DNA of 64,000 nucleotides, from contig CANSRH010000009.1 of assembly GCA_947649365.1 (NCBI GenBank), positions 1,417 to 65,416 on the forward strand. Reading direction: 5' to 3'. Every line of letters begins with the position of its first letter. Position 1 is the stretch's first letter. Positions 27,756 to 50,132 of the stretch are shown piece by piece. The translations under genes and the position numbers were made by a program. The notes under the pieces are model-generated. The model ran no database searches, was not told the origin of the DNA, and saw only the letters and a program-made list of their open reading frames with translations. The stretch comes from an uncultured Mycoplasmatota bacterium. GTDB lineage: Bacteria; Bacillota_I; Bacilli_A; RF39; UBA660.

Positions 27756-28350
27756 TTATGGAATTAACAATTGTTGCCCTATAGACAAATTACTTGTTGC
27801 TAAATTATTTAAACTTTGTAAAGCACTAACCGTTGTATTATTATCTCTAGCTATGCTATATAAAGTATCGCCTTTTTTTACTGTATAAGTTTTATAATTT
27901 GATGTTGAATTTGGCACTATAAGACGTTGACCAATACTTAATAAATTACTTGATAAATTATTTAAACGTTTTAATTCATCAACGGTAGTATTGTATTGAC
28001 TTGCTATTTTATATAAACTATCTCCACTTTTCACAATATAATAATTAGTATCTGTCGGGCTTGTGCTACCACTAATTTTTAATACTTGACCAATGGATAG
28101 ATTATTAGAAGTAAGATTGTTTAATTTTTTCAACTCATCCACGCTAAGATTAAATTCACGTGCAATCCCATACAAAGTATCTCCAGATTTTACAACATAT
28201 GTATCACCTGTAAATTCATTAGACCCTGTATTTTCTTTCAATTGCAAAACTTGACCAATAGACAATGAGTTAGAAGTCAAATTATTGATACGTTTTAGCT
28301 CATCAACAGACAACCCATTATTCTTAGCAATACTCCATAATGTATCTCCA
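27756..28350 (-). CDS. 3' segment of split cwlC-like N-acetylmuramoyl-L-alanine amidase (four LysM repeats)
   Basis: Repeats of Y.VK.GDTL..IA.......L..LN.L....L..GQ.L. The frame is open upstream to the element-1 junction (KKVSGDTLWSIAKNNG...), so it has no start of its own. Confidence 0.85.
28341..28350. repeat. 10-bp junction repeat TGTATCTCCA (element 1, left)
   Basis: Identical to 35838..35847. Lies in the codons GGA GAT ACA (G-D-T) of a LysM repeat. Confidence 0.9.
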
Positions 28351-28360
28351 GATACTTTTT

Positions 28361-29911
28361 TTATGTAACATTTTTAAATGTAAATAGAATATCTATCGTT
28401 TTGTCTTGATAAATATAAATCTTTTCTACCAAATTGATTATTAATTCTCTAGTTAAATTTTCTAAGGATAAAAATTCATTTATATAGTTTTCTATTTTTT
28501 TACTATCTTGTCTTTGATCATTTTTTTGTTCATTTTTAAGATGATCAATATTTGATTTATTCTTTTCCATTTCTTGTTTTAGATTTTCACTTATTCTTAT
28601 GTATTGTTCTTCTTCAATAATTCCTTTCAACATATTTATATAATTTTTATCTAAAGTTTCAGTTATTTTGTTATTTGCTATTTCTAAAGTTTCAATTTGT
28701 TTTTTTATTTTTATTGTATTGTCTTCAAACTCGATATCACCAATAGAATCTTTTATTTTATTCTTATCTAAATATTTCTTACATACATCTTTAATGTTAT
28801 CTAAAATAACACTTTCTAATACTTCGTAATTATTTGTATGAGTTGTACAAACATGATATTTTGAGTATGTCCTATAATAATCACAACTCGTATAACTCCT
28901 ACCAGTTTTATTTTGATATCTAATAGTTATACGATGTTTGCAATCTCCACAATATAAGAGTCCATCTAATAAATAAAATCTTTTCTTTTCTGGTCTTTTA
29001 ACATTTTTAGGTAAAAGTGTTTGAACATAATGAAAAGTATCTCTATCTATAATTGCTTCATGGGTGTTTTCAACGATAATATAATCTTTTGGATTATTCT
29101 TAACTGTCTTTTTAAGTTTATAATTAATCTTTTTAGTTTTACCTTGTACCGAATCTCCAACATATATCCTATTTGTAAGAATTGTTTTAATAGTTGTATC
29201 AACCCATACTCCATACTCTTGTGATATACACTTTGTATTCCATACATAATTATAATAAGACGCTGGTGTTTTAATTTTTCTTTTGGTAAGTTCTTGTGCT
29301 ACAAAGTGATATGTATTACCTTTAAGCGCTAAATCAAAAATTAGTCTAACAGTTTTTGCTTGTTCTTCATTGATAACTAAATGATTTTTATTATTAGGAT
29401 TTTTCATATATCCAAAAGGACATCTTCCCGATACATAAAGTCCATCTTTCATTCTTGAATGGAGACTTGTCTTCACTTTCTTAGAAATATCTTTAGCATA
29501 CATATCATTCATTATAGCTTTAAAAGGCGCTATATCATTATTAGTAGTATCTATGAAGGTATCAATACCATCATTAATTGCAATATACCTTATATTTTTA
29601 TTTGGAAAGTACTTTTCAATTAGCTCACCAGTTCCAATATAATCTCTGCCTAGTCTTGACATATCTTTTGTAATAATCATATTAATTTTACCAATTTCAA
29701 CATCTCTAATCATTCTTTTAAATGCTGGTCTTTCAAAATTAGTTCCAGTAAACCCATCATCTACATATTCATCTACTATTTTATAATTATTTTCATTAAC
29801 ATATTGATTTAATAAACTTCTTTGACTAACAATACTATCTGATTCAATATTTCCATCCTCTCTTGACAATCTTATATAGATTCCTACTCTAAAACTACTA
29901 TTTCCTATCAT
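28361..29911 (-). CDS. large serine recombinase
   Basis: VGIYIRLSRED catalytic-Ser motif, a resolvase domain, a recombinase domain, a Cys-rich zinc-ribbon (CGDC...C...C) and a coiled-coil tail. Confidence 0.92.
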   Translation of the reverse strand: MIGNSSFRVGIYIRLSREDGNIESDSIVSQRSLLNQYVNENNYKIVDEYVDDGFTGTNFERPAFKRMIRDVEIGKINMIITKDMSRLGRDYIGTGELIEKYFPNKNIRYIAINDGIDTFIDTTNNDIAPFKAIMNDMYAKDISKKVKTSLHSRMKDGLYVSGRCPFGYMKNPNNKNHLVINEEQAKTVRLIFDLALKGNTYHFVAQELTKRKIKTPASYYNYVWNTKCISQEYGVWVDTTIKTILTNRIYVGDSVQGKTKKINYKLKKTVKNNPKDYIIVENTHEAIIDRDTFHYVQTLLPKNVKRPEKKRFYLLDGLLYCGDCKHRITIRYQNKTGRSYTSCDYYRTYSKYHVCTTHTNNYEVLESVILDNIKDVCKKYLDKNKIKDSIGDIEFEDNTIKIKKQIETLEIANNKITETLDKNYINMLKGIIEEEQYIRISENLKQEMEKNKSNIDHLKNEQKNDQRQDSKKIENYINEFLSLENLTRELIINLVEKIYIYQDKTIDILFTFKNVT

Positions 29912-30102
29912 TAATTACTACTCCCTTCATTTTGGGAATAATGCTTGGATGGAAACTCCTTTTTTAATAGGTTGCAAGTCGTATTTACTCTTCTTTCTAG
30001 TTCAATTTTTAATACATTAGTTATTGTTTCATTTAAAGATTTTCCATTTTCTTTAAAATTCAAATTAACTTTGTATTTAACCATAGAGTTTAATACCTCC
30101 AA
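29911..30102 (-). CDS. small protein translationally coupled to the recombinase
   Basis: Its stop overlaps the recombinase ATG (TAATG). 63 aa. Confidence 0.5.
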   Translation of the reverse strand: MEVLNSMVKYKVNLNFKENGKSLNETITNVLKIELERRVNTTCNLLKKEFPSKHYSQNEGSSN

Positions 30103-30230
30103 TAAATTCTATGGTTTTAAATTTGTTTTAGTAATATTATTTAGTTGCATACAACAAACTCAACAATATGACTTATTACCATAAACCTCCATTAATTTTA
30201 AAATTATTATAATATCGTAAATAATTGTAT

Positions 30231-30275
30231 AAAAAAAACATCCATATAGTGATAATCACTAATTTATTATGGATG
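30231..30275 (-). terminator. putative terminator of the defence-like operon
   Basis: Stem CATCCATA/TATGGATG followed by T8 on the minus strand. The long 21-nt loop contains its own palindrome. Confidence 0.4.
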
Positions 30276-31233
30276 CTTTAATTTTTTTATATTTACCATT
30301 TCCTAAAAATTCAACATATCCTTCCTCTCTTAAAAATTGCAATTGTTGTCTTATTTTATCACGGATGTGATTATTTTCAGGATGATTTTTTTGCAACTCA
30401 TCTTCATATACATAAATATCTTCAAGTGAAAATTCATTTTTAGATATTTTTTTGATGATATTTTTTATGTCATTCTTCCACCCATTACTTTTTTGAATAA
30501 AAATTATTCTCTCAGATATTATTTTATATAAATCTTCGCTAGATAACTGATCAATAAGAATTTTCCCACTTAATCTATATAAATATGTTTTTAACATTCC
30601 AAATTGCTCACGTGATAATTTTATATCGTTATCTTCTTCATATTTTTTAACTGCTTTAATAATATTTTTAAAAACATCCTTATTATTAGCAAAAACACAA
30701 GACAATAAAGGAAATATCTTACCATTGATATCATTGTTACAAATATATTTAGTCAGCTCATAGGGATCATCTAATTCTTCATCATAAGTAAATCTTGCAT
30801 ACCACCACAATCTAGATAATCCATTTAGAAAAGGTGCCTTCGTACTATTCCAAAAGAAATAATTATTTAAAATATGACTATTTAAATCATCTTTATTTTT
30901 AGGTACTGACCATCTTTTTTGCATGTAATCCCAAAATATTGTATGAGCCATACCAGCCCATAGTCTTTCATCGCTTGCTTGAGAATCTGTCAAAAATTTT
31001 AAATTTTCATACATTATAACCATATTGTCGTAATCATCTTTTACGCCATTTTCAGTTTTTAATGAAAAATCGTTAACTTCAGCTATATTAAATGGTAAAA
31101 ATAAATTATGTTTAATATATTTCTTATCTATCCATGTACTATCTTTCTCATAATAAAATTTTGAATTAATACGCAAATCACTTTTTTTAAGCAAATCTAC
31201 TGAATTTTCTTTTAAATAAAATATTTGCATCAT
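30259..31233 (-). CDS. hypothetical 324-aa protein with C-terminal winged-helix-like tail
   Basis: The ATG overlaps the upstream stop (ATGA). The C-terminus reads NHIRDKIRQQLQFLREEGYVEFLGNGKYKK. Confidence 0.65.
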   Translation of the reverse strand: MMQIFYLKENSVDLLKKSDLRINSKFYYEKDSTWIDKKYIKHNLFLPFNIAEVNDFSLKTENGVKDDYDNMVIMYENLKFLTDSQASDERLWAGMAHTIFWDYMQKRWSVPKNKDDLNSHILNNYFFWNSTKAPFLNGLSRLWWYARFTYDEELDDPYELTKYICNNDINGKIFPLLSCVFANNKDVFKNIIKAVKKYEEDNDIKLSREQFGMLKTYLYRLSGKILIDQLSSEDLYKIISERIIFIQKSNGWKNDIKNIIKKISKNEFSLEDIYVYEDELQKNHPENNHIRDKIRQQLQFLREEGYVEFLGNGKYKKIKASIIN

Positions 31234-32114
31234 TTACCACCACTTTCATCAATATGATCTCTTATCCACTCTAATCCTGATGACAAAGGGAATTCTAATA
31301 ACTTTTGAGCAATATCTATAGATCCTGCACGTTCAACTAAACTTGGTAAAAATTTTGCATCATAAATTTTTTCTATCTTCTTTTTAAATACTCTAAACCA
31401 TTTGGAAGTTTCATAGGAATAGAAATTATTATCCTCTTTACACTCACTTGTAACCATATCTAAAACATAAACAATAGTAGGAATAATAATCATAGAATTA
31501 GCTACATCTAAAAAATGTTTTGCATATTTATTATAAATTATGTAATCTTCTTTATTCAAAATAATATATATTATATCTCCACTAAAATCTATTTTCATCC
31601 CTTCATCCTCGTCATCCTTCATTCTAACTTTTATAACAGATGAAAGTTTAGTGAATTCATGGATATCTTTTTCTATAAATACGTTTTCTTTTGAACCAAT
31701 AGCAAGTATACTTCCTTTTTGCAAATTGAACTTTGTATCTCCGTAGTCTTTATTAAAATTTTCACAATGATAATCCACTATATCTTCCAAAAGAATGATA
31801 TATGACGAAAGCTCAATTCTATTATTAACATCTTTATTATTTAAAACTATTTCATTATTTCCATAATTTAAATTATAAATTTCTCTAAATTTAGTAGAAG
31901 AACAATATATTTTTACTATAGCTTGAGCTTTACCAGTATTTATTAATTTTTTTAAATCACAATCATCTATATTAAATATATAATTAATTATTGAGTTTTT
32001 TTTCTTTTTCAATAAAGTTTTTGTTGTTTCAGAAGTGTAACTGACATTTATAAAATCATCAGTATTATTATCCAATACAGGATAAGCAAATAACTTATTT
32101 TGGTTCATTGCCAT
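31230..32114 (-). CDS. hypothetical ~295-aa protein
   Basis: The likely start is MAMNQNKLFAYPVL at 32114, overlapping the ATPase gene end. The track ORF extends to 32180. Confidence 0.6.
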   Translation of the reverse strand: MAMNQNKLFAYPVLDNNTDDFINVSYTSETTKTLLKKKKNSIINYIFNIDDCDLKKLINTGKAQAIVKIYCSSTKFREIYNLNYGNNEIVLNNKDVNNRIELSSYIILLEDIVDYHCENFNKDYGDTKFNLQKGSILAIGSKENVFIEKDIHEFTKLSSVIKVRMKDDEDEGMKIDFSGDIIYIILNKEDYIIYNKYAKHFLDVANSMIIIPTIVYVLDMVTSECKEDNNFYSYETSKWFRVFKKKIEKIYDAKFLPSLVERAGSIDIAQKLLEFPLSSGLEWIRDHIDESGGK

Positions 32115-34008
32115 ATAAAGCGACCTCCATAGTCCAATTTTCATCACTATCAAGCTCATAGGAAATTGTATAAATTTCATTAGCTTTTACATTTTTAATA
32201 ATTATATAATTATCACTATATTCATAATCAATAGCATTTGTATTATCATTATTTTTTATCACTAGAACACTAGTTAAATCAGCTTTTTCTTTATATCCTT
32301 CACCACTTATATTCAAATCTATTTTTATTATATCTTCGTCTTCATTTGAAGATAATATTATATTTCTATTTATCATTCTTATCTTATTTGGAATAATTCT
32401 TCTCTTAATTTGTGAATACTTTTCCTTTTGACGAGGATTTGGATTTGGATCAGGTGATGGAGTAGGATTTGGTTTTGGTTTTTTATTTTTTATAATATTG
32501 CCTTCTGGATCTAACTCGATATCATCCTCACCATCATCAGATTTTTTAGTTGGATTTTTCTTTTGTATCAGTGGAGTGTCTTGAATTTCTATCTTTGATA
32601 CATTATCATTAGCTAAAGTTTCTAAATTTTCATCATTATACGAATCAAAAATATATTCATCTGGTAAAAGTTCCCCAATTCCCTCAGCATCCATTTCTTC
32701 TTTTATTTCTGTTGTCAAATATTCTCTTATCGATTTCTTTACAAAATTTGTTAATTGGTCAATTTTATTTTGTGCGTCTTCTGGATTTGAGCTTCTCTTG
32801 GCTGACCATTTGTTATGTGTGGCATTTTCTAATTTTCTAAAATAATCATTAATCTCCATCCCAGTCATTTCCAGAATACCATGGTAACATCCCAATTTCG
32901 GTAAATATTTAATATCTAAAATTTTCATCCCTGTTGATCTTATAGCAGCAACAGTATTAAGAGAAGAAAAGTTTTCTTTGCTATCATCTACTCTCAATTT
33001 TAAAATCAAATCATTTTCGCTAAAGAATGTATAGGGTATTTCTATAACATCATTCTTGTAATTATTTAATATTTCATAATAATATGCAGTTGCATTATTT
33101 AAGTATTTAGAGATAGATTCATTTTTAATATATTCTTCTACATTAGAAAAGTTTAAAATATATTCATCATGACATATGCTTATTTTTAATTCATTTTTAA
33201 ACAGTGCTAAAAAGAAATTATCTATGATTGACGCAATTATTTGTTTTTTCCATTCTTCAGTTTCTTCCTTAAAGCCAATTATATAAATATCAGTTCCATA
33301 TTCTGTTCGTGGATAATTCTTTTCTAAATTTAATAGTTTTGGTATTCTAAATAATTCACCATCATTCTCATAATATCCTTCTCCAATGGCTCTATTACCA
33401 TCTTTTAAATCGAATCCCGATAATCTTGATATTCCACAATAGGCCTTTAATTCATCCTTTGCATATGTACTGTAAAAAACTGTATATAAAGACGAACACA
33501 CAAATGATGCGAATTTCCCCTTGCCCTTGCTACCTCCAGAACCTTCTGGTTTATCTGAAACACCTGCATTCTTTGTTAAATTACACCATGGAGATGATTT
33601 TGTTTTATTGGATCCTAATAAACCAGTAGTATTATAGTCTGCGATACGTAAACATCTAATATTATCTTTTTTTAATACCCCTAGTCCGTTTTCATAAAAC
33701 TTTGGTACTTCTTTATCATGTTCATAAAAAGAATTATTAAAATCATATTCATTTTTAAAAACCTCAACAAAATCTTCATATCCAGGGATGTCAGTATTCT
33801 TAATCCAAAATTCATCAAACGTTACCTTTATTGTTTTACTACTACTATCATTATATTCTGTTATAAATTTCGTATCTAAAGAATTTTGACAAATCTCTTT
33901 CGCTAAAGAAATAATAGGATTATCTTTAAATTCTTCACCTATATTATTAAAACCTTGTATACTTATTCCAGACGCACTGGGGAAATTCCATTTTCCATCT
34001 TCTTGCAT
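32095..34008 (-). CDS. GHKL (Bergerat-fold, HSP90/MutL/MORC-like) ATPase-domain protein
   Basis: N-box-like EICQNSLD, RIADYNTTG and G-rich lid GSGGSKGKGKFASF. A P/N/D-rich linker (PKPNPTPSPDPNPNP) precedes a small C-terminal domain. Confidence 0.65.
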   Translation of the reverse strand: MQEDGKWNFPSASGISIQGFNNIGEEFKDNPIISLAKEICQNSLDTKFITEYNDSSSKTIKVTFDEFWIKNTDIPGYEDFVEVFKNEYDFNNSFYEHDKEVPKFYENGLGVLKKDNIRCLRIADYNTTGLLGSNKTKSSPWCNLTKNAGVSDKPEGSGGSKGKGKFASFVCSSLYTVFYSTYAKDELKAYCGISRLSGFDLKDGNRAIGEGYYENDGELFRIPKLLNLEKNYPRTEYGTDIYIIGFKEETEEWKKQIIASIIDNFFLALFKNELKISICHDEYILNFSNVEEYIKNESISKYLNNATAYYYEILNNYKNDVIEIPYTFFSENDLILKLRVDDSKENFSSLNTVAAIRSTGMKILDIKYLPKLGCYHGILEMTGMEINDYFRKLENATHNKWSAKRSSNPEDAQNKIDQLTNFVKKSIREYLTTEIKEEMDAEGIGELLPDEYIFDSYNDENLETLANDNVSKIEIQDTPLIQKKNPTKKSDDGEDDIELDPEGNIIKNKKPKPNPTPSPDPNPNPRQKEKYSQIKRRIIPNKIRMINRNIILSSNEDEDIIKIDLNISGEGYKEKADLTSVLVIKNNDNTNAIDYEYSDNYIIIKNVKANEIYTISYELDSDENWTMEVALYGNEPK

Positions 34009-34009
34009 A

Positions 34010-34237
34010 TTAATTACCTCTCAAACTAAATTTATTATCCTTTTTTTCAAATTTTATTTTTGTTGATTTTAATTCACTTTCAATTGCACTAAATATCATT
34101 TTTACTTGTTGATTAGTATACTTATAATTGTTTGTATTTGCACAGTTACCTAAAAGTCTTAATGTTTGCAAAATCGTGTTTGTTCGATTTTCAGCTATTT
34201 TCAAAAACCTTTCTTCTTTTTTTTTATCATTATCCAT
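34010..34237 (-). CDS. small 75-aa helical protein
   Basis: Start MDNDKKKEERF with a GAGGTG Shine-Dalgarno. The track's longer N-terminus covers a consensus promoter and is unlikely to be coding. Confidence 0.55.
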   Translation of the reverse strand: MDNDKKKEERFLKIAENRTNTILQTLRLLGNCANTNNYKYTNQQVKMIFSAIESELKSTKIKFEKKDNKFSLRGN

Positions 34238-34259
34238 AAAAGCACCTCGCTTACTACAT

Positions 34260-34287
34260 ATTATACATATATAAGAAAACATGTCAA
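34260..34287 (-). promoter_or_regulatory. sigma-A-type promoter (TTGACA-16-TATAAT)
   Basis: Exact -35 and -10 hexamers on the minus strand, about 20 nt upstream of the Shine-Dalgarno of the 75-aa gene. Confidence 0.55.
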
Positions 34288-34344
34288 CTATATTTTCAAA
34301 ATGTAGTATTGTTTTTTGATATATAGTACAAAAAAAGATAATCA

Positions 34345-35502
34345 TTATGTATTATTTTGATTATCTTCTATTTTGTAATTTGTTATTAATAGATGTTCTA
34401 CGCCTTTTGCATTTCTATTCATAAAACTAACTAAATACTTTTTTTCAAATATTTCAATATTAAATCCTTTATCTTTATATAAATTTAAAATAAAGTCTGT
34501 ATTTTTTATAATTAACATAAATTTTGCTTTTGTTTTAGAAAGATAATTAGCTAGTCTAATTTGATCATCTTTATTAAATTTATTTTTAGAATAGGTAGAA
34601 AATTCTGTATCATACGGTGGGTCTAAAAAAACAAAGTCGTCTTCTTTAAGTTTTACTTTATCACAAAAATCTTCAAAGTCCATATTATAAATCTCTGTCT
34701 TTTCCATATACTTTCTTAATGTACTTGATTCAATATATTCAATTTTTTTTAAAAAATCTTTTCTATTATAGCTGATTCCTCCATATGGCACATTAAATTT
34801 ACCTTGCGAATTGTATCTAAACATAGATGAGTAACAATATTCTCTAATAAAATAAAATATGGCAGTAGCAAATTTACTTGATAAATTTAATTCTTCCTTA
34901 TAATTATATAAATATCTAAAATGAACATAAAAGGCGCTTTTTAATGAACACTCAATATTTTGTAATATATCTGTTTCATTCATGGTACCTTTTTTGCATT
35001 CAATAATATACATTCTTTTTATTTTGTCATACAATTTTTTTTGAATTTCATGAATAAAATTTTCAATATTTATATTAAAATTATTTGTTAAAACACCATT
35101 AAATTCTTTTGAATGCTTTATTACAAACTCACATATTATATTAGTATATTCTATTTTAATTTGTTTAGCATCACCATTCAAAGAATCATTGCAATAGTTT
35201 TTATATAAATTTAATAATTCTTCAGAATTATTTTCAACCACTTTTTTTAACAAAGTCCAATTATGATATAAATCGGTAACCTTCTTAAAAAATTCTTCAT
35301 CACCATCTTTGATACACTCATATAAATGTATAAGTTCTTCACATCTATCATTTATTATTGCTTCTTTAAAACTTACATTAAAATATACTGCTCCACCACC
35401 AACAAAAGGTTCAATATATCTATTATATTTTTGTGGTAAATTTGATAAAATATATGAAAGCTCTTTTTCTTTTCCACCTGCCCATTTTATAAATGTTTTC
35501 AT
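34345..35502 (-). CDS. D12-class (Dam-like) N6-adenine DNA methyltransferase
   Basis: FIKWAGGKEKEL, FVGGGAV (SAM binding) and FLDPPY (catalytic DPPY). Confidence 0.88.
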   Translation of the reverse strand: MKTFIKWAGGKEKELSYILSNLPQKYNRYIEPFVGGGAVYFNVSFKEAIINDRCEELIHLYECIKDGDEEFFKKVTDLYHNWTLLKKVVENNSEELLNLYKNYCNDSLNGDAKQIKIEYTNIICEFVIKHSKEFNGVLTNNFNINIENFIHEIQKKLYDKIKRMYIIECKKGTMNETDILQNIECSLKSAFYVHFRYLYNYKEELNLSSKFATAIFYFIREYCYSSMFRYNSQGKFNVPYGGISYNRKDFLKKIEYIESSTLRKYMEKTEIYNMDFEDFCDKVKLKEDDFVFLDPPYDTEFSTYSKNKFNKDDQIRLANYLSKTKAKFMLIIKNTDFILNLYKDKGFNIEIFEKKYLVSFMNRNAKGVEHLLITNYKIEDNQNNT

Positions 35503-35807
35503 ATCAAATCTACCTCGATTCTCTATTTAGATTTTATCATAAAAAAAGACTATATAAAATACTTTATGTAATTAATTACTTTGATTTTTTAAAATGTAAA
35601 TTTTTGTATTTTTAAATTATTCCACTTTTAATAAACAAGTAATATAATTAATTTCTAAATCCTTATCGAAAGTTAATATTACTTTAGGAGTAGGATTTTT
35701 TTCTTATAATGAATTAAATTCTTTTTCAAGTCCCTAATAATTTCGAACGAATAGAGATACTTAATAGTATATTAAGCCATATCTATTATCTACAACAAAG
35801 TCAACTT

Positions 35808-36437: not shown

Positions 36438-36472
36438 AAACTATATTTCTTTTATTTTTTATAGGTTATATT

Positions 36473-38077: not shown

Positions 38078-38143
38078 CTACTACAACACCTCAATTCTGA
38101 TTGGTTGTAGCAAATATAAATCTACAAAGATATTATATATCAT

Positions 38144-38287
38144 ATTAAGAATTATTTAAAGCCACACTATCTTCTTCACTTGCTAATATAACTCGTAGTA
38201 ATTTTTTTGCTATAATATCTTCTAAATCTTTTTCTTCAATAATTACATTATTTTTATTTACATATATTACATTATAATTTACCTCCA
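38144..38287 (-). CDS. small 47-aa protein upstream of recombinase (below ORF-track cut-off)
   Basis: MEVNYNVIYVNKNNVIIEEKDLEDIIAKKLL..., with a GGGGG Shine-Dalgarno about 10 nt upstream. Same position as the 63-aa ORF of element 1. Confidence 0.35.
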
Positions 38288-38347
38288 TTTTATCCATACC
38301 CCCTTTTTTATTCTCTATAAAGAATATCCTCCTAATTTAATCATATA

Positions 38348-38851
38348 TCAATCCTCCTTATACTTACTTAATAATTCTTCCATATATGCTTGTTCTTCAG
38401 GACTAGCTTCTTCTGATTTACAAACTTCTGGATGTTCCATCCAATATGGAATTATACTAGTTAAATTCTTATTATTATTTCTTGTATATTCTTTTCTTTT
38501 ATATTGGTAATTTTTTACTATGTTTTTATCCTCATTTTTTTCTAATACTTTAGAATTTTCATTACTTACGATTGTCTCGTTTAAATAAATTCTTCTTTGA
38601 CTATTAATAAATTTAACATCTATATACTTCTTTCTTTTTAAATTATTAATAGAATTTGATATTGTTTTTTCTTTAACACTTAACTGATTAGCAAAGTAAC
38701 TATTACTAGCGTAGCAATACTCCTTATTATTTGATAATGAGTTAATCATACCATAAACTAACTTATCTGTTTGGGAACAAGTTTGGTCATTTAATATTAT
38801 TCTTGGTACAGCTATAAAATACCTTATAAAAGCCATAAATCCCACTTTCAA
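38348..38851 (-). CDS. HTH-domain protein (replication/organizer-like)
   Basis: N-terminal winged-helix pattern (YCYASNSYFANQLSVKEKTISNSINNLKRKKYI). Confidence 0.5.
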   Translation of the reverse strand: MKVGFMAFIRYFIAVPRIILNDQTCSQTDKLVYGMINSLSNNKEYCYASNSYFANQLSVKEKTISNSINNLKRKKYIDVKFINSQRRIYLNETIVSNENSKVLEKNEDKNIVKNYQYKRKEYTRNNNKNLTSIIPYWMEHPEVCKSEEASPEEQAYMEELLSKYKED

Positions 38852-39028
38852 AATATAGCTTCTAAGTATTGGTTAAGCCACTTTTGGGCGCAATATCCCT
38901 AGGAGAATGTTTTATATCTATCCCCCAAAGATATTGTTTTGATTCATTCTATATCTTATATAGAATAGGTACTAACATAAGCCTTTAATCTTACTGTACC
39001 TCTTATAACTAACGTTCTATAAACTTTT

Positions 39029-39286
39029 TTAGTTAAGTGTTATTGTATACATTCCTGTATCATATTCTTGAAATACTAGATATTTCAATTTCTCTAATAC
39101 TTCAAGATTTTTTCTTAAACCCTCATTTTTAATTTTGATGGTTTGTTGTATTTCTCCTATATTTATATCTGTGATAATTCTTTCATTACCTTTAGCATAT
39201 ATATAAGAGTAAATATATTTTGCTTCCTTTGGAATATTTTTATCTTTCCAAATTATTGTTGGTATTTGAAACTTTGTAATCTTCAT
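39029..39286 (-). CDS. small winged-helix-like protein
   Basis: The pattern PKEAKYIYSYIYA...IGEIQQTIKIKNEGLRKNLEVLEKLKYL parallels the N-terminus of the 167-aa protein. Confidence 0.45.
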   Translation of the reverse strand: MKITKFQIPTIIWKDKNIPKEAKYIYSYIYAKGNERIITDINIGEIQQTIKIKNEGLRKNLEVLEKLKYLVFQEYDTGMYTITLN

Positions 39287-39451
39287 TCATATCTTTTCCT
39301 CCTCTCTTTTTCGATGAGTTTTACATCAATTTCAAACTGAGTATATCATTTAATATTGAGTTTGTCAACATAGTAATTACAAATTTGTTGACTTTTTCAT
39401 CACTTTATGATATATTTATATCAGTTGAAACGAAGAAAGGTGGTTACTTTA

Positions 39452-40057
39452 ATGAAAAAGAATACTACTGAATTAGGAAAAACTATAAGTGAAGCAAGAG
39501 AAAAATTAGGAATATCACAAAGAGAACTTGCTCGTAAATCAAATATGGATTGTGCCGAAGTTTCTCGTATTGAAGCTGGTAAAAGATTAAAACCTAATGT
39601 TTTATATTTAAAAGGAATTGCTGAAACATTAAATTTAAGTATGGTTGATTTAATGAAACTTGCTGGATATAATGATATAGAAATAAATTGGGGGCAAGAT
39701 TTCTCTGATAGAAGATCTACTGCTGACTATCAAAAACAAATAAAAAGTTATGAACAATTTTATTTTGACATTTTAGAAGAATTAGAAACAAGAAGAAAAA
39801 CTGATTTTACAATTAAAGGTGGTATTGCTGATTTAATTGATAAATTAGAACTTGCTAAAATAGAAAATAAGGAAATATCAAATGATGAAATATTAGATAG
39901 ACTAAAAGAATTAATTCCTATGATTAGACCTAATTTGGAAAAATTCGATAAATCAAAATATCCATCTTTTGATTCTGGTGTATTTCCTAAAATGGAAATA
40001 AAATCTGATGTAAAGTATCCTACTATACCAAAAGAATTAATTGATAAGAAAGATTAA
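39452..40057 (+). CDS. XRE-family HTH regulator with C-terminal extension
   Basis: LGISQRELARKSNMDCAEVSRIEAGKR. The start MKKNTTEL follows AAAGGTGG. The track ORF begins at 39407. Confidence 0.75.
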   Translation: MKKNTTELGKTISEAREKLGISQRELARKSNMDCAEVSRIEAGKRLKPNVLYLKGIAETLNLSMVDLMKLAGYNDIEINWGQDFSDRRSTADYQKQIKSYEQFYFDILEELETRRKTDFTIKGGIADLIDKLELAKIENKEISNDEILDRLKELIPMIRPNLEKFDKSKYPSFDSGVFPKMEIKSDVKYPTIPKELIDKKD

Positions 40058-40356
40058 AATTACTTTTGCTATGCAAAAGAAAAAAATAACCTTTTTGATT
40101 TATTCGTTAGACTTTAGCATTAAGGTTATTTTCATATAAAGAATACGTGGCACGTTTTGTCAGCTATGCTGATGAAAGTGGCGATAGTATTCTTTCTTTT
40201 TATTTAAACTTGATTTAAATAAAAAGGCAACAATATTACTTACGATATAGTTTGTAATATGTTGCTCATTGGGGTATCAAAAGGGGTATAATCCCTTTGC
40301 CCACTGATATTGGCTCAGCCAATATCGTAGTGGGTTACTATAATGGAATTATAGTT

Positions 40357-40400
40357 AAAAACAGAAATCCATTAGTTACGATATTTCCTTTGGATTTCTG
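40357..40400 (-). terminator. rho-independent terminator after the hydrolase gene
   Basis: 10-bp stem CAGAAATCCA/TGGATTTCTG followed by T5 on the minus strand. Confidence 0.55.
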
Positions 40401-40407
40401 AAAATTT

Positions 40408-41616
40408 TTACTCATATATTTGTTTTATTTTATTTTCTAATAATTCGGCTAATTTCTTATGGCTTTCTTTAGTTAAGTGTACACCATCTATGCCAGTTTT
40501 TAAATCTTTATTTTCTAAAAAATAACAATCATATTTTTCAGCTATGCTCTTATAAATATTATTTAAGTCTTTTGATTTCTGTGTAGCTCCTAAATATTTA
40601 TCATTTTCTTTGCAATAAATGGTATTTTCATTAACAATTGGTGGAGCAATTAATAATAATTTTGGATAGCTATTTTTTATTTGTGATTTCCTATTTAATA
40701 TTGTTTTAACAAAGTATTGTTCCAATAAAGTACCAATTTCTTGTGCTGTTTTATTATAAGCACTTTTTAATTCATTAGTTCCTAGCATTATTATGACTAA
40801 GTCAATAGGATCATGTGTATCCAAACAAGGAATTAAATATTCATAACCATTTTTTCCTTCTTTTCCTGGTCGAGTGTCATTTGAAATTAAAGTTCTACTA
40901 TTTAAGCCTTCCTCTATTATTTCAAAACCATTACCTAATAATTCTGATAGTATTTTTGTCCATCTTTCATTATTTCCATATCTTTTATGATCAGTACCAG
41001 AGATATAGCCCCAAGTATTAGAATCTCCATAACATAAAATTCTTGTTTGTCTATTAACATCATTGATAATTTTCATAACTTCAGGTAATTCCTTTATTCC
41101 TGATGATCTTCCTAAATGACCTATATTTGGAATAAAAACTTTAGTAGCATTAAATCTTTCGGCATAGTATTCAAGTTCACTTTGTGGATTCATATGATCA
41201 TTATTACTATATATTGCAAATCTTTTTTTACATAATTTAATAAAAGAATCGATTTGCTTATCATTAGGTTTAAAGTCTTCAACTATTTTTTGCAAATCAT
41301 CTCTACCACTATGATCATTTAAAAATCCAGCACAACTTATATATAATTTTATTTCTATGTTTTTATCTGAAATATATTTAGGAATAAAATGTGTTCCAAG
41401 ACTATGAGCAACTATTATGGAATTTTCATTCAATTGACCATTTTCAAAATATTTATCCATTATATTACTCCATTTTTGATAGGTTGCCTCTTGTCTAATC
41501 GGAAAATCAGGAAATATTACATTAAAACCATTCTTTTTTGCTTCATTTTCCAAAAATGGGCCAAATGATTCCTTTGTGTCTGCATTATAACTATGAATTA
41601 TAAATAAATTATTCAT
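40408..41616 (-). CDS. fusion of alpha/beta serine hydrolase (YdeN/RBBP9-like) and SGNH/GDSL hydrolase
   Basis: AHSLG nucleophile elbow in the N-terminal half. CYGDSNTWGY, GTNE and DGVHLT blocks in the C-terminal half. The start at 41616 follows GAGAGGAGA (alternative ATG at 41634). Confidence 0.75.
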   Translation of the reverse strand: MNNLFIIHSYNADTKESFGPFLENEAKKNGFNVIFPDFPIRQEATYQKWSNIMDKYFENGQLNENSIIVAHSLGTHFIPKYISDKNIEIKLYISCAGFLNDHSGRDDLQKIVEDFKPNDKQIDSFIKLCKKRFAIYSNNDHMNPQSELEYYAERFNATKVFIPNIGHLGRSSGIKELPEVMKIINDVNRQTRILCYGDSNTWGYISGTDHKRYGNNERWTKILSELLGNGFEIIEEGLNSRTLISNDTRPGKEGKNGYEYLIPCLDTHDPIDLVIIMLGTNELKSAYNKTAQEIGTLLEQYFVKTILNRKSQIKNSYPKLLLIAPPIVNENTIYCKENDKYLGATQKSKDLNNIYKSIAEKYDCYFLENKDLKTGIDGVHLTKESHKKLAELLENKIKQIYE

Positions 41617-41630
41617 ACAAAGGTCTCCTC

Positions 41631-42806
41631 TCATTTTCTTATTTTTTTCGTATCAATATCTTCATTTTCTTTAAGATTGAATATTCTCGAAAGTTCTTCT
41701 AAATGCCTTTCTCCTTTTTCAATCATACTTTTTAAAAATGGGGTTTGTTCATAAGTATATCTTTTAATTCTTAAAGCCATTTTTGATATTGTATATCTTA
41801 ATCTCATTAATTGAAACAACTCATCAAAATTATCATATATTGGAGTTTCACTAAAATATCCCTTTAAAAATGGTGTAATTCGTTTTGGATCAAAGAATGT
41901 AGACCAACAAGCTATTTCTTGAATAGGATTCCCTGCAACACATTCATCCCAATCTATAACACCAGTTATAGTATTACCATCAGTAAGTAAATTCCAATCA
42001 GCAAAATCATTATGAATTAGAACTGACATATCTAAATTAAGTAATTCATTATCATCAAATAATGTTTTCATTTTATCTGCTACTTCTTTTGTTAAAATAT
42101 TATACTTAACTAATCTTTCAAGGTTCTCCTCTAATCCTGCATTTATAGAATCTTTTAGTGATTTATGTTTCCCTACAAGCTTACCATTTTTAGCTTGTTC
42201 ATTGTCAAAAGGGCCAAATCCAGTAACTTTTATTTTGTGTAACAATGCCATAGTTTTTCCCATTTCAATAACAAGTTGTTCTTCTTTTTCAGGAGTTTTC
42301 TTTAAATAAAATTGAACAGTATCTCCATTTAACTTTTCTATAACTTGATAAGAAATATCATCTTCACTACCTAATTCATGAATACAATAGGTTTTATAAG
42401 CAGGGATCCCATTTTCTAAAGCTATATTTGAAGCTAAACTTTCAGCATAAAAATACCCATTTCTAACACCTTTTGGGTGGCACCTTATTATTACTTCTTT
42501 TCCGCTTTCTAAGATACCAACTCTTATTGAATTGACATTTCCTAAACTTGTTTGAGCATTTTCATCGAATTGTTTGATATAAGCTAATTTATCATCTTTT
42601 AGTTCTAAATTGATTTTATCTAACAATTCTTCATTAGTTATAGCTGAATGTCTATCTTTCCATATCATCGCTGCTTCTTCTGCACTTATTTTTCTATCAG
42701 TTTGCCAATAAAAGCAATCCGATCTATCGCTAATTCTTTGATTTATTTCATTTAAATTCATAGTTCTTAAATCTCCTTTCTTTTTGAACTTCTTTTGTTG
42801 ATTCAA
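41631..42806 (-). CDS. aminoglycoside/choline-kinase-type phosphotransferase (APH family)
   Basis: Brenner motif HNDFADWN and IDWDE metal-binding motif. Confidence 0.75.
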   Translation of the reverse strand: MNQQKKFKKKGDLRTMNLNEINQRISDRSDCFYWQTDRKISAEEAAMIWKDRHSAITNEELLDKINLELKDDKLAYIKQFDENAQTSLGNVNSIRVGILESGKEVIIRCHPKGVRNGYFYAESLASNIALENGIPAYKTYCIHELGSEDDISYQVIEKLNGDTVQFYLKKTPEKEEQLVIEMGKTMALLHKIKVTGFGPFDNEQAKNGKLVGKHKSLKDSINAGLEENLERLVKYNILTKEVADKMKTLFDDNELLNLDMSVLIHNDFADWNLLTDGNTITGVIDWDECVAGNPIQEIACWSTFFDPKRITPFLKGYFSETPIYDNFDELFQLMRLRYTISKMALRIKRYTYEQTPFLKSMIEKGERHLEELSRIFNLKENEDIDTKKIRK

Positions 42807-42831
42807 TTATACTACAAATTCCATTTCTTTA

Positions 42832-44118
42832 CTACAAACTCAGCTCATAATCATCTTTTTCTTTATCATCGTAAGTCTTTTTACTTGTTTTCAAATAACT
42901 AGGTATATCAGCATAATCAAACAATTCATTCTCTTTAATAGTTCCTTTAGAAATATCATAAACATCATCAGAATTAAAATCTTGATTATCATAATACTCT
43001 TTTATTTCGTTTGTAGTAGCTTCTTTTGTAGGTTCATTACCAATTTGTAGTAGTTTTCTAAAAAACCTCTTTATAACCTTTAAAATAGTATCTAGATACG
43101 ATTTTAATTTGTTGTTTTCTTGTAAAAGATTACTATTCCTAGTTTTTAATGATTTGATTTCACGTTTGTATTTTTGATTATCTTTTTCTAGTGAATTATA
43201 ACTTGTAACATAACTATCTACTTCATTAAATATCTCATTTATTTTTGGTTGTAATTCCATAATCTTTTTAGACTCTTTAATAACTTTATTCATAGTATCA
43301 AGAGTATCCTTTTCTACAACTATATGTTTCTTATCAAAAGGAATAGTTTTAGTAGTTTTCATCTGACTCTCAAACTCATTCATAACTTTATCAAGTCTAT
43401 CATTTCTAGTATTTAAATTTTGTTCTAGTTTTCTATTTATCTTTTTATAATCTTTGATTTTAATATGTTTTCTATCACTACCTTTGATTCCTCTTTCTAA
43501 ATCGTAACCTTTATCAGTTAATCGTTTATGATATTTATCTTGTAGTTCAGACAAATGTATCTTATCTCTAATGTATTGTTTTTTAGAAATAGTGTATCGT
43601 TCTGTATTAGTTCTTTTATCTAACTTTTTAACAAGAGGTACAACTACGCAATGAATATGTGGTGTCTTTTCATCTAAATGAATAACACTATGAAGAACTT
43701 GTTCTTTGGTATAACCTAAATCTTCATAAACAAACTCCATACAAGTATTAGCCCAATCAAGTATATCTTCTCTTGTCATATCTTTAAAAAATTCATTTGT
43801 TGCAGTAAATAATAACTCATCAGCAACAACATTTTTAGATTTATCTAACATTTGGTTAAAAGTTCTTTTTCTGTCATCTCGTTCTGTTTTCATTCTTTCT
43901 TTATGTTCTTTCTCATACTCTTTTACAAGCATTTTAAAACCTTTAACATATTTTTCTGCTAAAGGCACTAGTTCTATATTATCTTTGCTTAATTCTACCT
44001 TAATATCCGGATTAGAATTATAAGCTTTCTTTTCTCTTTTATTATGTGATCCAATTTGTGCTAAATCATTTAAAGTATAAATTGGTTCACTTCTAAATAT
44101 TGCATAATTTAAATTCAT
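42832..44118 (-). CDS. MobV-family relaxase (Mob_Pre / plasmid recombination enzyme)
   Basis: N-terminal NYAIFR...GSHNKREKK and HIHCVVVPLV (the HxH-type motif of MobV). Coiled-coil C-terminus. Confidence 0.85.
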   Translation of the reverse strand: MNLNYAIFRSEPIYTLNDLAQIGSHNKREKKAYNSNPDIKVELSKDNIELVPLAEKYVKGFKMLVKEYEKEHKERMKTERDDRKRTFNQMLDKSKNVVADELLFTATNEFFKDMTREDILDWANTCMEFVYEDLGYTKEQVLHSVIHLDEKTPHIHCVVVPLVKKLDKRTNTERYTISKKQYIRDKIHLSELQDKYHKRLTDKGYDLERGIKGSDRKHIKIKDYKKINRKLEQNLNTRNDRLDKVMNEFESQMKTTKTIPFDKKHIVVEKDTLDTMNKVIKESKKIMELQPKINEIFNEVDSYVTSYNSLEKDNQKYKREIKSLKTRNSNLLQENNKLKSYLDTILKVIKRFFRKLLQIGNEPTKEATTNEIKEYYDNQDFNSDDVYDISKGTIKENELFDYADIPSYLKTSKKTYDDKEKDDYELSL

Positions 44119-44147
44119 ATATCAATCCTCTCTTTCTTTTTTTAGGC

Positions 44148-44190
44148 AAAATAAAAATACTTCTGTTAAAAAGTATCTTATTTTAATTAT
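44148..44190 (+). other. oriT-like hairpin copy A (degenerate)
   Basis: AAAATAAAAATACTTCTGTTAAAAAGTATCTTATTTTAATTAT. Near-identical to 45731..45775. Immediately upstream of the relaxase gene. Confidence 0.45.
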
Positions 44191-44192
44191 CC

Positions 44193-44759
44193 TTACTCTT
44201 CCTTTGTGCTTTCCTCTGGTTCTTGCAATCCAGTCAATTGATAATATCTTTTAGTTGCTTCTTCACTATTTGCTAATGTTGCCATTGCTAAAGCATAGTT
44301 CGCATTCGTTTTTGAATCCATAGGTATTTTTGATTCAATAATTTTTCTCAATAATAAAGTTAATGGTTCTCCTATAGCTTGTTTATAATTAAATCCTATT
44401 AATTGCATTATAGTTAATGTTTCAACAGATAAAACTTTTTTTAATTGATCGAATTGTTCTTTATCCTTTTCAGGAATAAACTCTGCTATTATAGGTAATA
44501 AATTATCTGTAATATATTTAATATCTCCTTCAGTTATTTTCTGAGATACTAATTCTTGTTCATATGCTTGAGCAATTCTTTGAATTTCTGCTTTATCAGT
44601 TAATAAATCATATATAATTTCTTCAAGTTCACTAATTGTTTCTTTATACTCTTTTTTTGTTTTAGCTGTTTTAATCTTATCACTAATTATACTAGCACCA
44701 TTTCTAGCAGTTGCTTCAACTAAATTTGCAGCCAATTGTGTCATAATTTGATTATCCAT
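44193..44759 (-). CDS. hypothetical helical protein
   Basis: ORF only. Confidence 0.45.
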   Translation of the reverse strand: MDNQIMTQLAANLVEATARNGASIISDKIKTAKTKKEYKETISELEEIIYDLLTDKAEIQRIAQAYEQELVSQKITEGDIKYITDNLLPIIAEFIPEKDKEQFDQLKKVLSVETLTIMQLIGFNYKQAIGEPLTLLLRKIIESKIPMDSKTNANYALAMATLANSEEATKRYYQLTGLQEPEESTKEE

Positions 44760-44785
44760 ATCAATAATTCCTCCCAGTTTTAAAT

Positions 44786-45457
44786 TTAATTTTCTATAAA
44801 TTTCTTTAACTCATCAGAACAATAAATATTTATATACTCTAATCTTTCTTCTTCACTTAAATTATGACTATTGCTTTTAAACATATCTTTTAATTTTTTA
44901 TAATCTCCATTAATACTTTCATGACTAGCAATAATCATATCTATTTTAGATACATTTGTTAAATCAAGATATATGCCATTTATTTTGGCAAGTGATTCTA
45001 TAAATACTCTTTGACTTCTGCCATTGCCTTCTCTAAAAGGGTGCAAAGCATTAATATCTGCAAATAATTCTACTAACTTTTCTAGTGTTGTTTCATTGTC
45101 ATAATCTACAAAGTACTTTTCTTTTTTTAATTTACTAAATACATCTGTGCCAAATGATTCTATATGCTCTGTTAAACAAAATAAGTCTTGCTTAGCAATA
45201 TTACAATTTCTTATATCTCCAGCCCATCTATAAACATCTTGAAACAAATATTTATGAATATCTTTTAAGTATTTAAAGTCGAAGTTACCTTTTAAAGGGC
45301 TATCATTAAATGCTGAAACTCTAAGAGAAACCAATTCTCTTTCAGCATTAAATAAATCTTCATCATTGGTAATATTAAGTTTATTTATTAAAACATCAGT
45401 TCCTTTATAGCAATAATCTGCTGTTCGCTCATAGGTATATTTATATTTGTTATCCAT
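44786..45457 (-). CDS. Fic-family protein (toxin-type AMP transferase)
   Basis: HPFREGNGRSQR matches HxFx(D/E)GNGRxxR. Confidence 0.88.
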   Translation of the reverse strand: MDNKYKYTYERTADYCYKGTDVLINKLNITNDEDLFNAERELVSLRVSAFNDSPLKGNFDFKYLKDIHKYLFQDVYRWAGDIRNCNIAKQDLFCLTEHIESFGTDVFSKLKKEKYFVDYDNETTLEKLVELFADINALHPFREGNGRSQRVFIESLAKINGIYLDLTNVSKIDMIIASHESINGDYKKLKDMFKSNSHNLSEEERLEYINIYCSDELKKFIEN

Positions 45458-45650
45458 AAATTCTCCTATATTTCTCTAGAATTTTTTCTCGCTCTTTATC
45501 ATACGTAGACTTTCCAGTTATACAATTATAAAGTTTTTGTTTTATTTCTTTAGTTAATGGCATGCCTTCTTGAGCCATAGCACCATCAACTTTTCTTATT
45601 TTTTCTTGAATTTCTTTTTCAGTTAATTTTTTATTGTTCATTAAAATCAC
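45450..45650 (-). CDS. VbhA-like antitoxin of Fic
   Basis: Small ORF overlapping the Fic start. AMAQEG sits at the position of the (S/T)xxxE(G/N) inhibitory motif. Confidence 0.6.
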   Translation of the reverse strand: MILMNNKKLTEKEIQEKIRKVDGAMAQEGMPLTKEIKQKLYNCITGKSTYDKEREKILEKYRRIYG

Positions 45651-45730
45651 TCGCTTTCTTTAAGAACTTTGATATACTTATTATACCACAAAAGCCCTTA
45701 TAAATCATTAGTTTCACAGTATTTAATTTC

Positions 45731-45775
45731 AAATAAAAATACTTTCGTTAAAAAGTATCTTAGTGTAATTATTAT
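45731..45775 (+). other. oriT-like hairpin copy B
   Basis: AAATACTTTCGTTAAAAAGTATCTTAGTGTAATTAT. The hairpin plus AGTGT resembles the pMV158-family oriT nick region (AAAGTATAGTGTG/TTAT). Confidence 0.5.
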
Positions 45776-45839
45776 TAAATTATATAGATTGTTATTTGCT
45801 ACAACTCATGTTTATTACATTGGGTTTATCCAAACTCGG

Positions 45840-45872
45840 GTGGCCAGCATCCAAAACAACTTTTTTAGCCAT
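45840..45872 (-). CDS. 5' segment (codons 1-11) of split cwlC-like amidase
   Basis: GAGGAGGGG Shine-Dalgarno, then ATG GCT AAA AAA GTT GTT TTG GAT GCT GGC CAC = MAKKVVLDAGH, which is the start of the Amidase_3 D.GHGG motif. After the junction it runs 15 unrelated codons to a stop. Confidence 0.75.
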
Positions 45873-45892
45873 ATTTTTCCCCTCCTCGTTAA

Positions 45893-45919
45893 TAGTTTAT
45901 GACACAAAAAAGATATGGT
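45893..45919 (-). promoter_or_regulatory. sigma-K-like promoter (AC-16-CATAAACTA)
   Basis: Minus strand reads AC, 16 nt, then CATAAACTA, matching AC-N16/17-CATAnnnTA. It lies about 20 nt upstream of the amidase Shine-Dalgarno. Confidence 0.4.
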
Positions 45920-45940
45920 TACTTATCACCATATCATTAA

Positions 45941-47050: not shown

Positions 47051-47052
47051 CT

Positions 47053-47982: not shown

Positions 47983-48078
47983 AGTTTCACCTTAAATCAT
48001 TATAACATACCGACAAAATAGAGTATATATTTTTTGCGTGTTCCTTATGTTATAATAATGTGAAAAGGATGTGAAAAT

Positions 48079-49692: not shown

Positions 49693-49722
49693 AATAAAGT
49701 ATATGCAACTAAGAAAAAATGA

Positions 49723-50055: not shown

Positions 50056-50092
50056 TTTTTAATTATTCATAATTATAGCATATATAAAAAAC

Positions 50093-50118
50093 AAAAAAAA
50101 CCTCGCCCAAAGGCAAGG
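50093..50118 (-). terminator. rho-independent terminator after rpsI
   Basis: CCUUGCC/GGCGAGG stem with a 4-nt loop, then U8 on the minus strand. Confidence 0.7.
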
Positions 50119-50132
50119 TGAGAAAATATTTT

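Follow-up and report, generated by a model that had tools for sequence, protein, structure and literature searches.

A Cell-Wall Amidase Gene of RF39 Bacteria Is Split by Two Unrelated Serine Recombinase Elements

A peptidoglycan amidase gene on contig CANSRH010000009.1, from an uncultured bacterium of the order RF39, is cut into three pieces by two different large serine recombinase (LSR) elements, which we call element A and element B, and joining the pieces exactly restores an uninterrupted open reading frame (ORF). We analyzed a 64,000-nucleotide stretch of this contig, referred to here as the window. The initial annotation of the window had proposed the split, and its coordinates and sequences for all three fragments and for the repeats at their ends were correct to the base. 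It nevertheless understated the case, which is not a one-off: the amidase gene is a recurrent target, at three fixed sites and for three LSR families, across the order. We favor, with a probability of roughly 0.6, a developmental reading in which the split amidase gene is rebuilt by excision linked to sporulation.

Reconstruction of the Amidase Gene

Joined on the minus strand in the order 45872..45841, 36414..35838 and 28340..27756, the fragments give 1194 nt, i.e., 397 codons plus a stop, and the frame is kept throughout. A GGAGG Shine-Dalgarno sequence precedes the ATG of fragment 1. The Pfam search of the joined ORF that the initial annotation had proposed returned a complete Amidase_3 domain at residues 5-180 (E=3.7e-27) together with four LysM repeats (E=1.2e-69); as the Amidase_3 match covers profile positions 1-173/174, it crosses the 5′ junction. 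Colinearity with intact homologues across both junctions, on which the initial annotation had made its claim depend beforehand, was found with more than 50 homologues, and there are no indels at either junction. The joined protein has no leader peptide, with Amidase_3 beginning at residue 5 and no hydrophobic N-terminal stretch. The three fragments are one conserved host gene encoding a leaderless peptidoglycan amidase, Amidase_3 followed by four LysM repeats.

Element A is bounded by an exact 10-bp direct repeat, TGTATCTCCA, at 28341-28350 and 35838-35847, one copy of which forms the 3′-terminal 10 nt of amidase fragment 2. The ends of element B have TGGC in common (36415-36418 and 45841-45844, exact). 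Each insert carries its LSR gene at the 3′-proximal end and in the same orientation as the amidase gene, as had been proposed, with the LSR-A and LSR-B genes ending 10 nt and 58 nt from the respective 3′ junctions. Coordinates of all features are collected in Table 1.

A decaying pseudogene or a mis-assembly, with a clean join arising by coincidence, has practically no probability as an explanation. The join completes a Pfam domain across one junction and a LysM repeat at the other, seven contigs, drawn from five independent assemblies, match the left attachment site (attL) of element B or the right one (attR) of element A at 99.98-100% identity, the predicted attB has been observed, and dozens of further genomes carry insertions at these sites. 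We also considered a prophage endolysin and rejected it, given the host synteny with Hydrolase_2, HD_3 and lipid genes (in contig L172 too), the sigma-K-type promoter and the lack of phage genes nearby.

Empty Site and Mobility of Element B

An exact look-up of the HtrA protein encoded in the window led to two contigs from other samples, L161 and L162. The former has the same occupied junction as the window. L162 matches window positions 52599..45841 at 99.97% identity and then continues into 36418..36331 at 100% identity, with a 4-nt overlap; the flanks are joined directly, so element B is precisely absent there and its boundaries are seen directly. The empty site, in which GCTGGCCA is followed immediately by TGGAGGG, equals the predicted junction, and the L162 sample retains element A (L164). 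The proposal of one gene cut by two different LSR elements, whose exact excision rebuilds the ORF, thus holds in the 397-codon join and, for element B, in an observed empty site. Uninterrupted alleles and empty attB sites, anticipated in relatives, were found in part: more than 50 homologues are intact and L162 is free of element B, but an allele of the same species free of element A did not occur in five assemblies. A protein search for a fully intact allele of the same species gave none above 90% identity, and the nearest matches are themselves interrupted.

A look-up of the Fic protein of element B found a further contig, L168, which carries the left 2.3 kb of the element at 99.87% identity after the DAGH codon of the amidase of another species; the 5′ exon there is MNERAIKGIVVDAGH, and the genes upstream encode an ABC transporter. 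In L006, LSR-B is conserved at 98% amino acid identity versus only 77% for the amidase. Taken together, L162, L168 and L006 show element B to be active and mobile between species, with one and the same codon as its target each time.

Recurrence across RF39

We compared the joined protein with species-representative genomes, which gave 228 relatives; the following counts refer to the best 80 of them. All 80 come from uncultured gut Bacilli, "Tenericutes" or "Mycoplasma CAG" metagenome-assembled genomes (MAGs), including CAG:460 and CAG:776, genera that belong to RF39, family UBA660 (PMC13155120). The amidase is interrupted in 24 of the 80 species representatives, 19 times at residue 10/11 and five times at residue 81-87, a third site in N-A-G-G-G-D codons with the core GGTGGCGAT. 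Double interruptions occur in L015, L085, L108 and L136; L015 combines an insertion at the 5′ site with another in a late LysM repeat. The four nearest checkable relatives (82-90% identity) are all interrupted, P0001-P0003 at the 5′ site and P0104, which shares the synteny of the window, at the third site.

In nine genome loci, ..HGGxDxG follows 50-70 nt after a relative of LSR-B (57-98% identity), and in a metagenome scan with LSR-B as query, 7 of the 10 loci with relatives of at least 57% identity (L081-L086, L088) adjoin the same motif. The scan also gave more than 20 relatives of LSR-A at 84-87% identity, and each one with downstream sequence is followed 12 nt later by a LysM repeat beginning at identical codons. 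LSR-A as an amidase-specific enzyme was nonetheless rejected: its att site follows the S-G-D-T codons of LysM, and later LysM repeats (L015, L107) and one GH25-LysM gene (L128) are used as well. The element at this last locus (L128, 6959-12021) is of LSR-A type, has 23-26% GC in a host of about 45% GC, and carries an HNH endonuclease gene; the GH25 lysozyme-LysM gene that it interrupts encodes a signal peptide and is preceded by a TATAAT-type region. The LSR-A family thus reaches LysM codons of several hydrolase genes, in hosts that are distant from each other.

Two observations concern assembly and annotation. Eight species-representative contigs (L004, L009, L022-L024, L055, L056, L078) start 34-61 nt upstream of the 5′ junction, and L167, a contig of the same strain, ends within the 10-bp core of element A; assemblies seem to break at the insertions, probably owing to recombinase modules common to co-resident genomes. 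Gene callers misplace the starts of interrupted amidase genes, choosing element-derived or internal codons (P0001-P0003, P0104). The amidase is systematically mis-called in RF39 MAGs, and insertions or their immediate surroundings are where contigs often end.

Selection on Interrupted Alleles

The initial annotation had named two outcomes that would together speak against it, a lack of excision products under any condition and fragments decayed to pseudogenes in relatives. On the second our results differ: none of 81 alleles has an internal stop, and no stop or frameshift occurs in the 25 or more interrupted copies. The ratio of nonsynonymous to synonymous substitution rates (dN/dS) between interrupted alleles is 0.028 for L024/L028 (dS 0.12), 0.034 for L006/L068 (dS 0.45), 0.044 for L004/L006 (dS 0.76) and 0.046 for L057/L068 (dS 0.80), equally low as between intact alleles (0.03-0.25). 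Detached 5′ exons of only 33-45 nt keep their promoter, Shine-Dalgarno sequence and frame in the window, L006, L082, L084 and L168; in L081 the 5′ exon and the CATAnnnTA box are kept and the upstream AC is absent. Such a pattern would be expected of a gene that is still functional, for which excision is necessary, and equally if every insertion is recent.

The same loci could be read differently. The amidase gene may be no more than a conserved but dispensable attB for ordinary mobilizable islands, which excise for their own transfer while other lysins cover the loss. Element B, with its relaxase, cI-like switch, sigma-A-type promoters and TndX-like recombinase, and with its very recent jump between species, has the character of such an island; cargo varies among related elements and the recombinase module alone is conserved; relatives of LSR-A also sit in the secreted, non-amidase GH25-LysM gene; and in B. 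subtilis, CwlC is redundant with LytC in mother-cell lysis. A dispensable gene is, however, hard to reconcile with strong purifying selection at dN/dS of 0.03-0.1 across the order, which also acts between interrupted alleles at dS 0.45-1.2, with the absence of stops and frameshifts from the 25 or more interrupted copies whose detached 33-nt 5′ exons keep a promoter, or with four nearest relatives that are interrupted yet in frame. Nor would it be expected that three unrelated LSR families meet on one 1.2-kb gene with a sigma-K-type promoter. We consider this reading rather unlikely, and less likely than excision linked to sporulation.

Attachment Sites

The sites reconstructed for both elements have the features of LSR attachment sites, namely an imperfect dyad, a 2-bp crossover and hybrid attL and attR. 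The attP of element A reads CATAAAAAAAGTATCT-GG-AGATACAATATTTATG, an imperfect palindrome around a 2-bp center, and that of element B reads TTGGGTATAAC..GC-CA-CC..GGATAAACCCAA, likewise an imperfect palindrome. In the B family, attL and attR from many hosts have only CA in common, the first two bases of the His codon; in the A family, attR is conserved on its element side as far as GTATC(T/A) and variable on its host side from GG on. Compared over all four att sites of each family, only CA (B) or GG (A) is shared. For element A, AGATACA at the start of both the P′ and the B′ arm accounts for the 10-bp repeat in the window.

Similar sites were seen elsewhere. In termite-gut metagenomes (L087, L090, L091), relatives of LSR-B at 60% identity are followed by near-perfect palindromes rather than by an amidase gene; these palindromes, of which GGGGCATTCCGATACCATCA-TG-TGATGGTATCGAAGTTCCCC is an example, resemble un-recombined attP sites. 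Arrays of imperfect palindromes of about 30 bp, AACTT..CC.A..TTGG..AAGTT, stand directly downstream of LSRs at L085 20500-20800 and L108 4640-4900; these LSRs are related to the recombinase of the third site, and the arrays may represent multiple att-like sites.

Promoter of the Amidase and Sporulation Context

The consensus of sigma-K promoters in B. subtilis is AC-N16/17-CATAnnnTA, and the amidase gene of the window is preceded by a match to this consensus, AC-N16-CATAAACTA. CATAnnnTA is found 23-31 nt upstream of the ATG in 56 of 56 available amidase 5′ ends. Once the sequences are anchored on this motif, 52 of 54 unique ones have a C 17 nt before it, with T-A-A ahead of that C. The sigma factor reading this promoter is, judging from the motif, probably sigma-K. 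A sigma-K-type promoter combined with the lack of a leader peptide suggests a late mother-cell lytic enzyme, and the amidase probably has such a role, CwlC-like in architecture.

Several neighboring genes fit this picture. The Hydrolase_2 gene (SleB/CwlJ-type) next to the amidase forms a pair with it that is syntenic in a sister species (L172). The window further contains yabG (NCBIfam 292 bits, above cut-off; CATATATTA with AC 18 nt upstream), yabP (91.6 bits, above cut-off) and divIC, and a cwlD-like amidase gene downstream of rplM-rpsI, an arrangement shared with B. subtilis. A peptidoglycan wall and spore formation have been predicted for RF39 (PMC10868615), and the RF39-type host is probably a spore former. 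A non-sporulating, Mollicutes-like host was rejected in view of yabG, yabP, cwlD and the sleB/cwlJ-like gene in the window and of the same published prediction. The suggestion in the initial annotation that the amidase is a mother-cell gene fits the sigma-K-type motif, the leaderless product and the sporulation genes of the window, and the gene probably is of this kind, but not to the extent of strict CwlC orthology.

Control of Excision

The operon of LSR-A has ttAC-N17-CATAGAAT upstream in 23 of 23 loci, kept even where the flanks have diverged, and CATAGAAT is one mismatch away from the sigma-K -10 element of the B. subtilis consensus. No clear sporulation motif was seen in the promoter regions of LSR-C, the third family. 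Excision timed to the mother cell is what the analogy with known elements would predict.

A number of points weigh against excision linked to sporulation. In the LSR-A promoter the final base of the motif does not match, and the same stretch also resembles a weak sigma-A promoter, TTACTA-N17-TAGAAT. A TATAAT-type box is conserved ahead of LSR-B, and the operon of this recombinase lies behind a consensus sigma-A promoter, TTGACA-N17-TATACT, under a divergent cI-like repressor, which argues for induction as in an integrative and conjugative or integrative mobilizable element rather than for control by a sporulation sigma factor. A strict sigma-K pattern has no intergenic site in either element, where it matches only in coding sequence or on the opposite strand. 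TndX, the nearest named relative of LSR-B, is not known to need a directionality factor. The presence of LSR-A relatives in a GH25-LysM gene implies that this family follows a LysM DNA motif and not sporulation genes as such. The empty site of L162 could be a never-occupied allele instead of an excision product, and no contig with the Fic gene of element B was found from that sample; none of the five assemblies holds an element-A-free allele of this species, and no attP or circle junctions of either element were found in IMG/VR. Finally, low dN/dS is equally expected if all insertions are recent.

Another possibility is that the elements leave and re-enter the chromosome at low frequency in vegetative cells, independently of sporulation, which would generate autolysin on/off subpopulations as in phase variation. 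Alleles with and without element B do occur within one study, with flanks 99.97% identical, TndX-type enzymes catalyze both directions without a directionality factor, and several contigs end at or beside att sites. We regard such a switch as highly improbable, since the amidase promoter is of a sporulation and not a vegetative type, the protein has no export signal, as would suit lysis from inside a dying mother cell, no sample contains both states of one site, and non-replicating circles would vanish from dividing cells.

Proposed Mechanism

Under the favored sporulation-linked reading, element B would integrate by recombination of attP with attB at CA in the His codon of D-A-G-H-G-G, and element A at GG within the S-G-D-T codons of LysM repeat 1. 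The motifs that contain the two sites are the best conserved of the coding sequence, so that the same landing site is available in many species. With either element present, no functional amidase would be made. Each LSR, probably aided by the small protein encoded upstream of it, would reverse the integration and return the ORF to its original state to the base. The amidase would be required solely by the mother cell in its terminal differentiation; excision in that cell, or in part of the population, would restore lysis and spore release, and the forespore chromosome would retain the elements with their defense cargo.

A stronger version of this scheme, to which we give somewhat less than even odds, is that the late mother-cell amidase gene of RF39 serves as a shared landing pad for at least three independent recombinase lineages, that spore release requires at least two independent, developmentally timed excisions, a multi-lock, and that the cargo is carried in the germ line free of cost, because it is removed only in a cell about to die.

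If these proposals are correct, a lytic enzyme gene and an uncultured, genome-reduced gut order would join the short list of sporulation genes rebuilt by excision; the convergent targeting by three LSR families at three sites, in about 30% of species and with several double hits, would reflect selection and not accident; and the defense cargo (PDC-M33 with a methylase, Fic/PDC-S04, HNH) would be tied to a genomic niche that is cheap for the host. The elements also offer natural sets of LSR, attB and attP with defined sites in conserved coding motifs, one of them recently active, which may be of interest for genome engineering.

Organization of the Elements and Neighboring Genes

Both recombinases are full-length and carry the catalytic-serine motifs RLSRED (LSR-A) and RLSDED (LSR-B). 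LSR-B is 34% identical to the annotated TndX of Tn5397 across 99% of its length; an exact look-up of the LSR-B protein returned no record. The NCBIfam model XisF is among those matching both LSRs, below cut-off. Every LSR of the three families is preceded by an ORF of 30-60 aa sharing ..Y.V.LKFK....I(I/T)..LLK(I/V).L.. and having no Pfam match; these small ORFs are candidates for accessory or directionality factors. The 57-aa ORF of element A and its AC-N17-CATAGAAT are both kept in the 23 LSR-A family loci. Conservation within this family is confined to the final 1.85 kb, which holds the promoter, small ORF, LSR and attR, and the cargo differs. In element B, the 85-aa ORF follows the TTGACA-N17-TATACT promoter. 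No phage structural genes were found in element A or element B.

Table 1. Features of the interrupted amidase locus (window positions)
Feature	Position	Strand	Description
Hydrolase_2 gene promoter	27235-27262	+	AC-N17-CATATACTA
Hydrolase_2 gene	27278-27700	+	SleB/CwlJ-type; convergent with amidase
Amidase fragment 3	27756..28340	-	codons 204-397 and TAA stop; from LWSIAKNNG; rest of LysM 1, then LysM 2-4
Element A	28341..35837	-	7,497 bp including one copy of the 10-bp repeat; in S-G-D-T codons of LysM repeat 1
LSR-A	28361..29911	-	516 aa; PF00239, PF07508, PF13408 (Resolvase, Recombinase, Zn_ribbon_recom)
Small ORF upstream of LSR-A	29911-30084	-	57 aa; overlaps LSR-A start
LSR-A operon, promoter-like motif	30106-30132	-	AC-N17-CATAGAAT
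Element A cargo	30259..35502	-	PADLOC candidate defense system PDC-M33 C/B/A, 111-aa ORF, methyltransferase
PDC-M33 C	30259-31233	-	fused to DpnI-type helix-turn-helix (HTH)
PDC-M33 B	31230-32180	-	
PDC-M33 A	32095-34008	-	
D12 methyltransferase	34345-35502	-	type II, N6-adenine
Amidase fragment 2	35838..36414	-	codons 12-203; GGNDPG to ..YIVKSGDT in LysM repeat 1; completes Amidase_3
Element B	36415..45840	-	9,426 bp; integrative mobilizable element after His-11 codon; inferred crossover CA
LSR-B	36473..38077	-	534 aa, DUF4368 tail; PF00239, PF07508, PF13408
47-aa ORF	38145..38288	-	directly upstream of LSR-B; candidate accessory/directionality factor; in every LSR-B relative examined
Element B regulatory module	38348..40057		HTH_36 protein, 85-aa ORF, HTH_3 repressor
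HTH_36 protein	38348-38851	-	
85-aa ORF	39029-39286	-	
HTH_3 repressor	39407-40057	+	cI-like; divergent
Element B cargo/transfer genes	40408..45650	-	include Ser-hydrolase/GDSL protein, APH-like kinase, 188-aa ORF, 66-aa ORF
MobV (Mob_Pre) relaxase	42832-44118	-	NCBIfam MobV 111 bits, cut-off 100
Fic protein	44786-45457	-	PADLOC PDC-S04
Amidase fragment 1	45841..45872	-	ATG and codons 1-11 (MAKKVVLDAGH); last 4 nt (GCCA, minus strand) are the shared core
Amidase promoter	45893..45919	-	AC-N16-CATAAACTA; sigma-K-type consensus match

Three further stretches of the window drew our attention. An 875-aa ORF at 57651-60278 (minus strand) adjoins yabG; its first ~220 aa are SigK/SigE-like (NCBIfam SigK 164-169 bits, below cut-off), and the ~650 aa after the sigma part contain four ..IYLRHGKDLD.. 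repeats resembling fragments of sigma region 4. Between cwlD and htrA, positions 47053-49044 hold an AbiD/Abi_2 abortive-infection gene and a Zn-dependent phospholipase C, which looks like a small defense or accessory islet outside both elements. A pilus- or adhesin-like cluster of this reduced genome, at 17304-19926 (minus strand), consists of a sortase gene and the genes of two SpaA-fold surface proteins, of which one has a thioester (TED) domain.

Comparison with Known Systems

The initial annotation had likened the amidase to B. subtilis CwlC, a sigma-K-dependent enzyme. The likeness stands in the Amidase_3 domain starting at about residue 5, the lack of a signal peptide, the wall-binding C-terminal repeats and the sigma-K-consensus promoter. 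It fails in the repeats themselves, which are four LysM and not SPOR, and no CwlC-type model matched; the best NCBIfam amidase match of the joined protein was CwlD, at 66 bits versus a cut-off of 221. A role in mother-cell lysis would be shared by analogy. No description of an amidase gene, cwlC-like or other, with such an interruption came up in a literature search.

Element B resembles Tn5397 and Tn4451-Tn4453 (TndX/TnpX; TnpZ Mob/Pre) in its TndX-like LSR, its MobV relaxase and its comparable size, and, as with them, its integration and excision would be precise and it moves between species. The crossover dinucleotide reported for Tn5397 and Tn4451 is GA, whereas that of element B is CA, in the His codon between DAGH and GG, in all family members examined. 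Element B also differs in targeting one fixed codon of a conserved gene instead of sites that resemble the transposon ends, and in a cargo that is defense-like rather than conferring antibiotic resistance.

Elements that intervene in sporulation genes are as such already known, including skin in sigK (B. subtilis and C. difficile), SPbeta in spsM, vfbin in spoVFB and vrin in spoVR (PMC4191935, PMC5025042, PMC5499854), and the present case fits the pattern of skin, SPbeta and gin. As in skin and SPbeta, an LSR lies near one att site, the element splits a gene with a mother-cell-type promoter, and its exact removal rebuilds the ORF; the recombinase gene adjoins the 3′ gene segment and runs in the same direction, and a small ORF stands beside the LSR, where the directionality factors SprB and CD1234 act in the known systems. 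In contrast to these, the target is an amidase and not a regulator, coat or dipicolinic acid gene, the elements are not prophage-like, and three sites are used by three LSR families in an uncultured order. As a single gene houses two unrelated elements, its repair calls for the removal of both. Sporulation-specific excision would apply here by analogy. The gin element in gerE of Bacillus cereus ATCC 10987 is non-phage, carries restriction-modification or defense genes and serine recombinases, requires the recombinase GirC together with a small additional factor, GirX, and has a 9-bp core in common with the gene (PMC5595907); the RF39 elements are likewise non-phage, with defense cargo, a serine recombinase and a short core shared with the gene. 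Whereas gin is a single 28.6-kb insertion with three recombinases, there are two elements here, of 7.5 and 9.4 kb with one LSR each, the larger also with a relaxase and a cI-like switch.

Heterocyst elements interrupt nif, fdxN and hupL, and in Calothrix NIES-4101 nifBHDK is divided into 13 parts (PMC4874684, PMC11249958). There, too, genes of a terminal cell are split, sometimes by several elements per gene or operon, each with its own recombinase. They differ from the RF39 elements in phylum and developmental program and are mostly immobile, whereas element B moves between species. What is new here is the target gene, the host order, the non-phage nature of the elements, the use of one gene by three LSR families and its repeated double occupancy.

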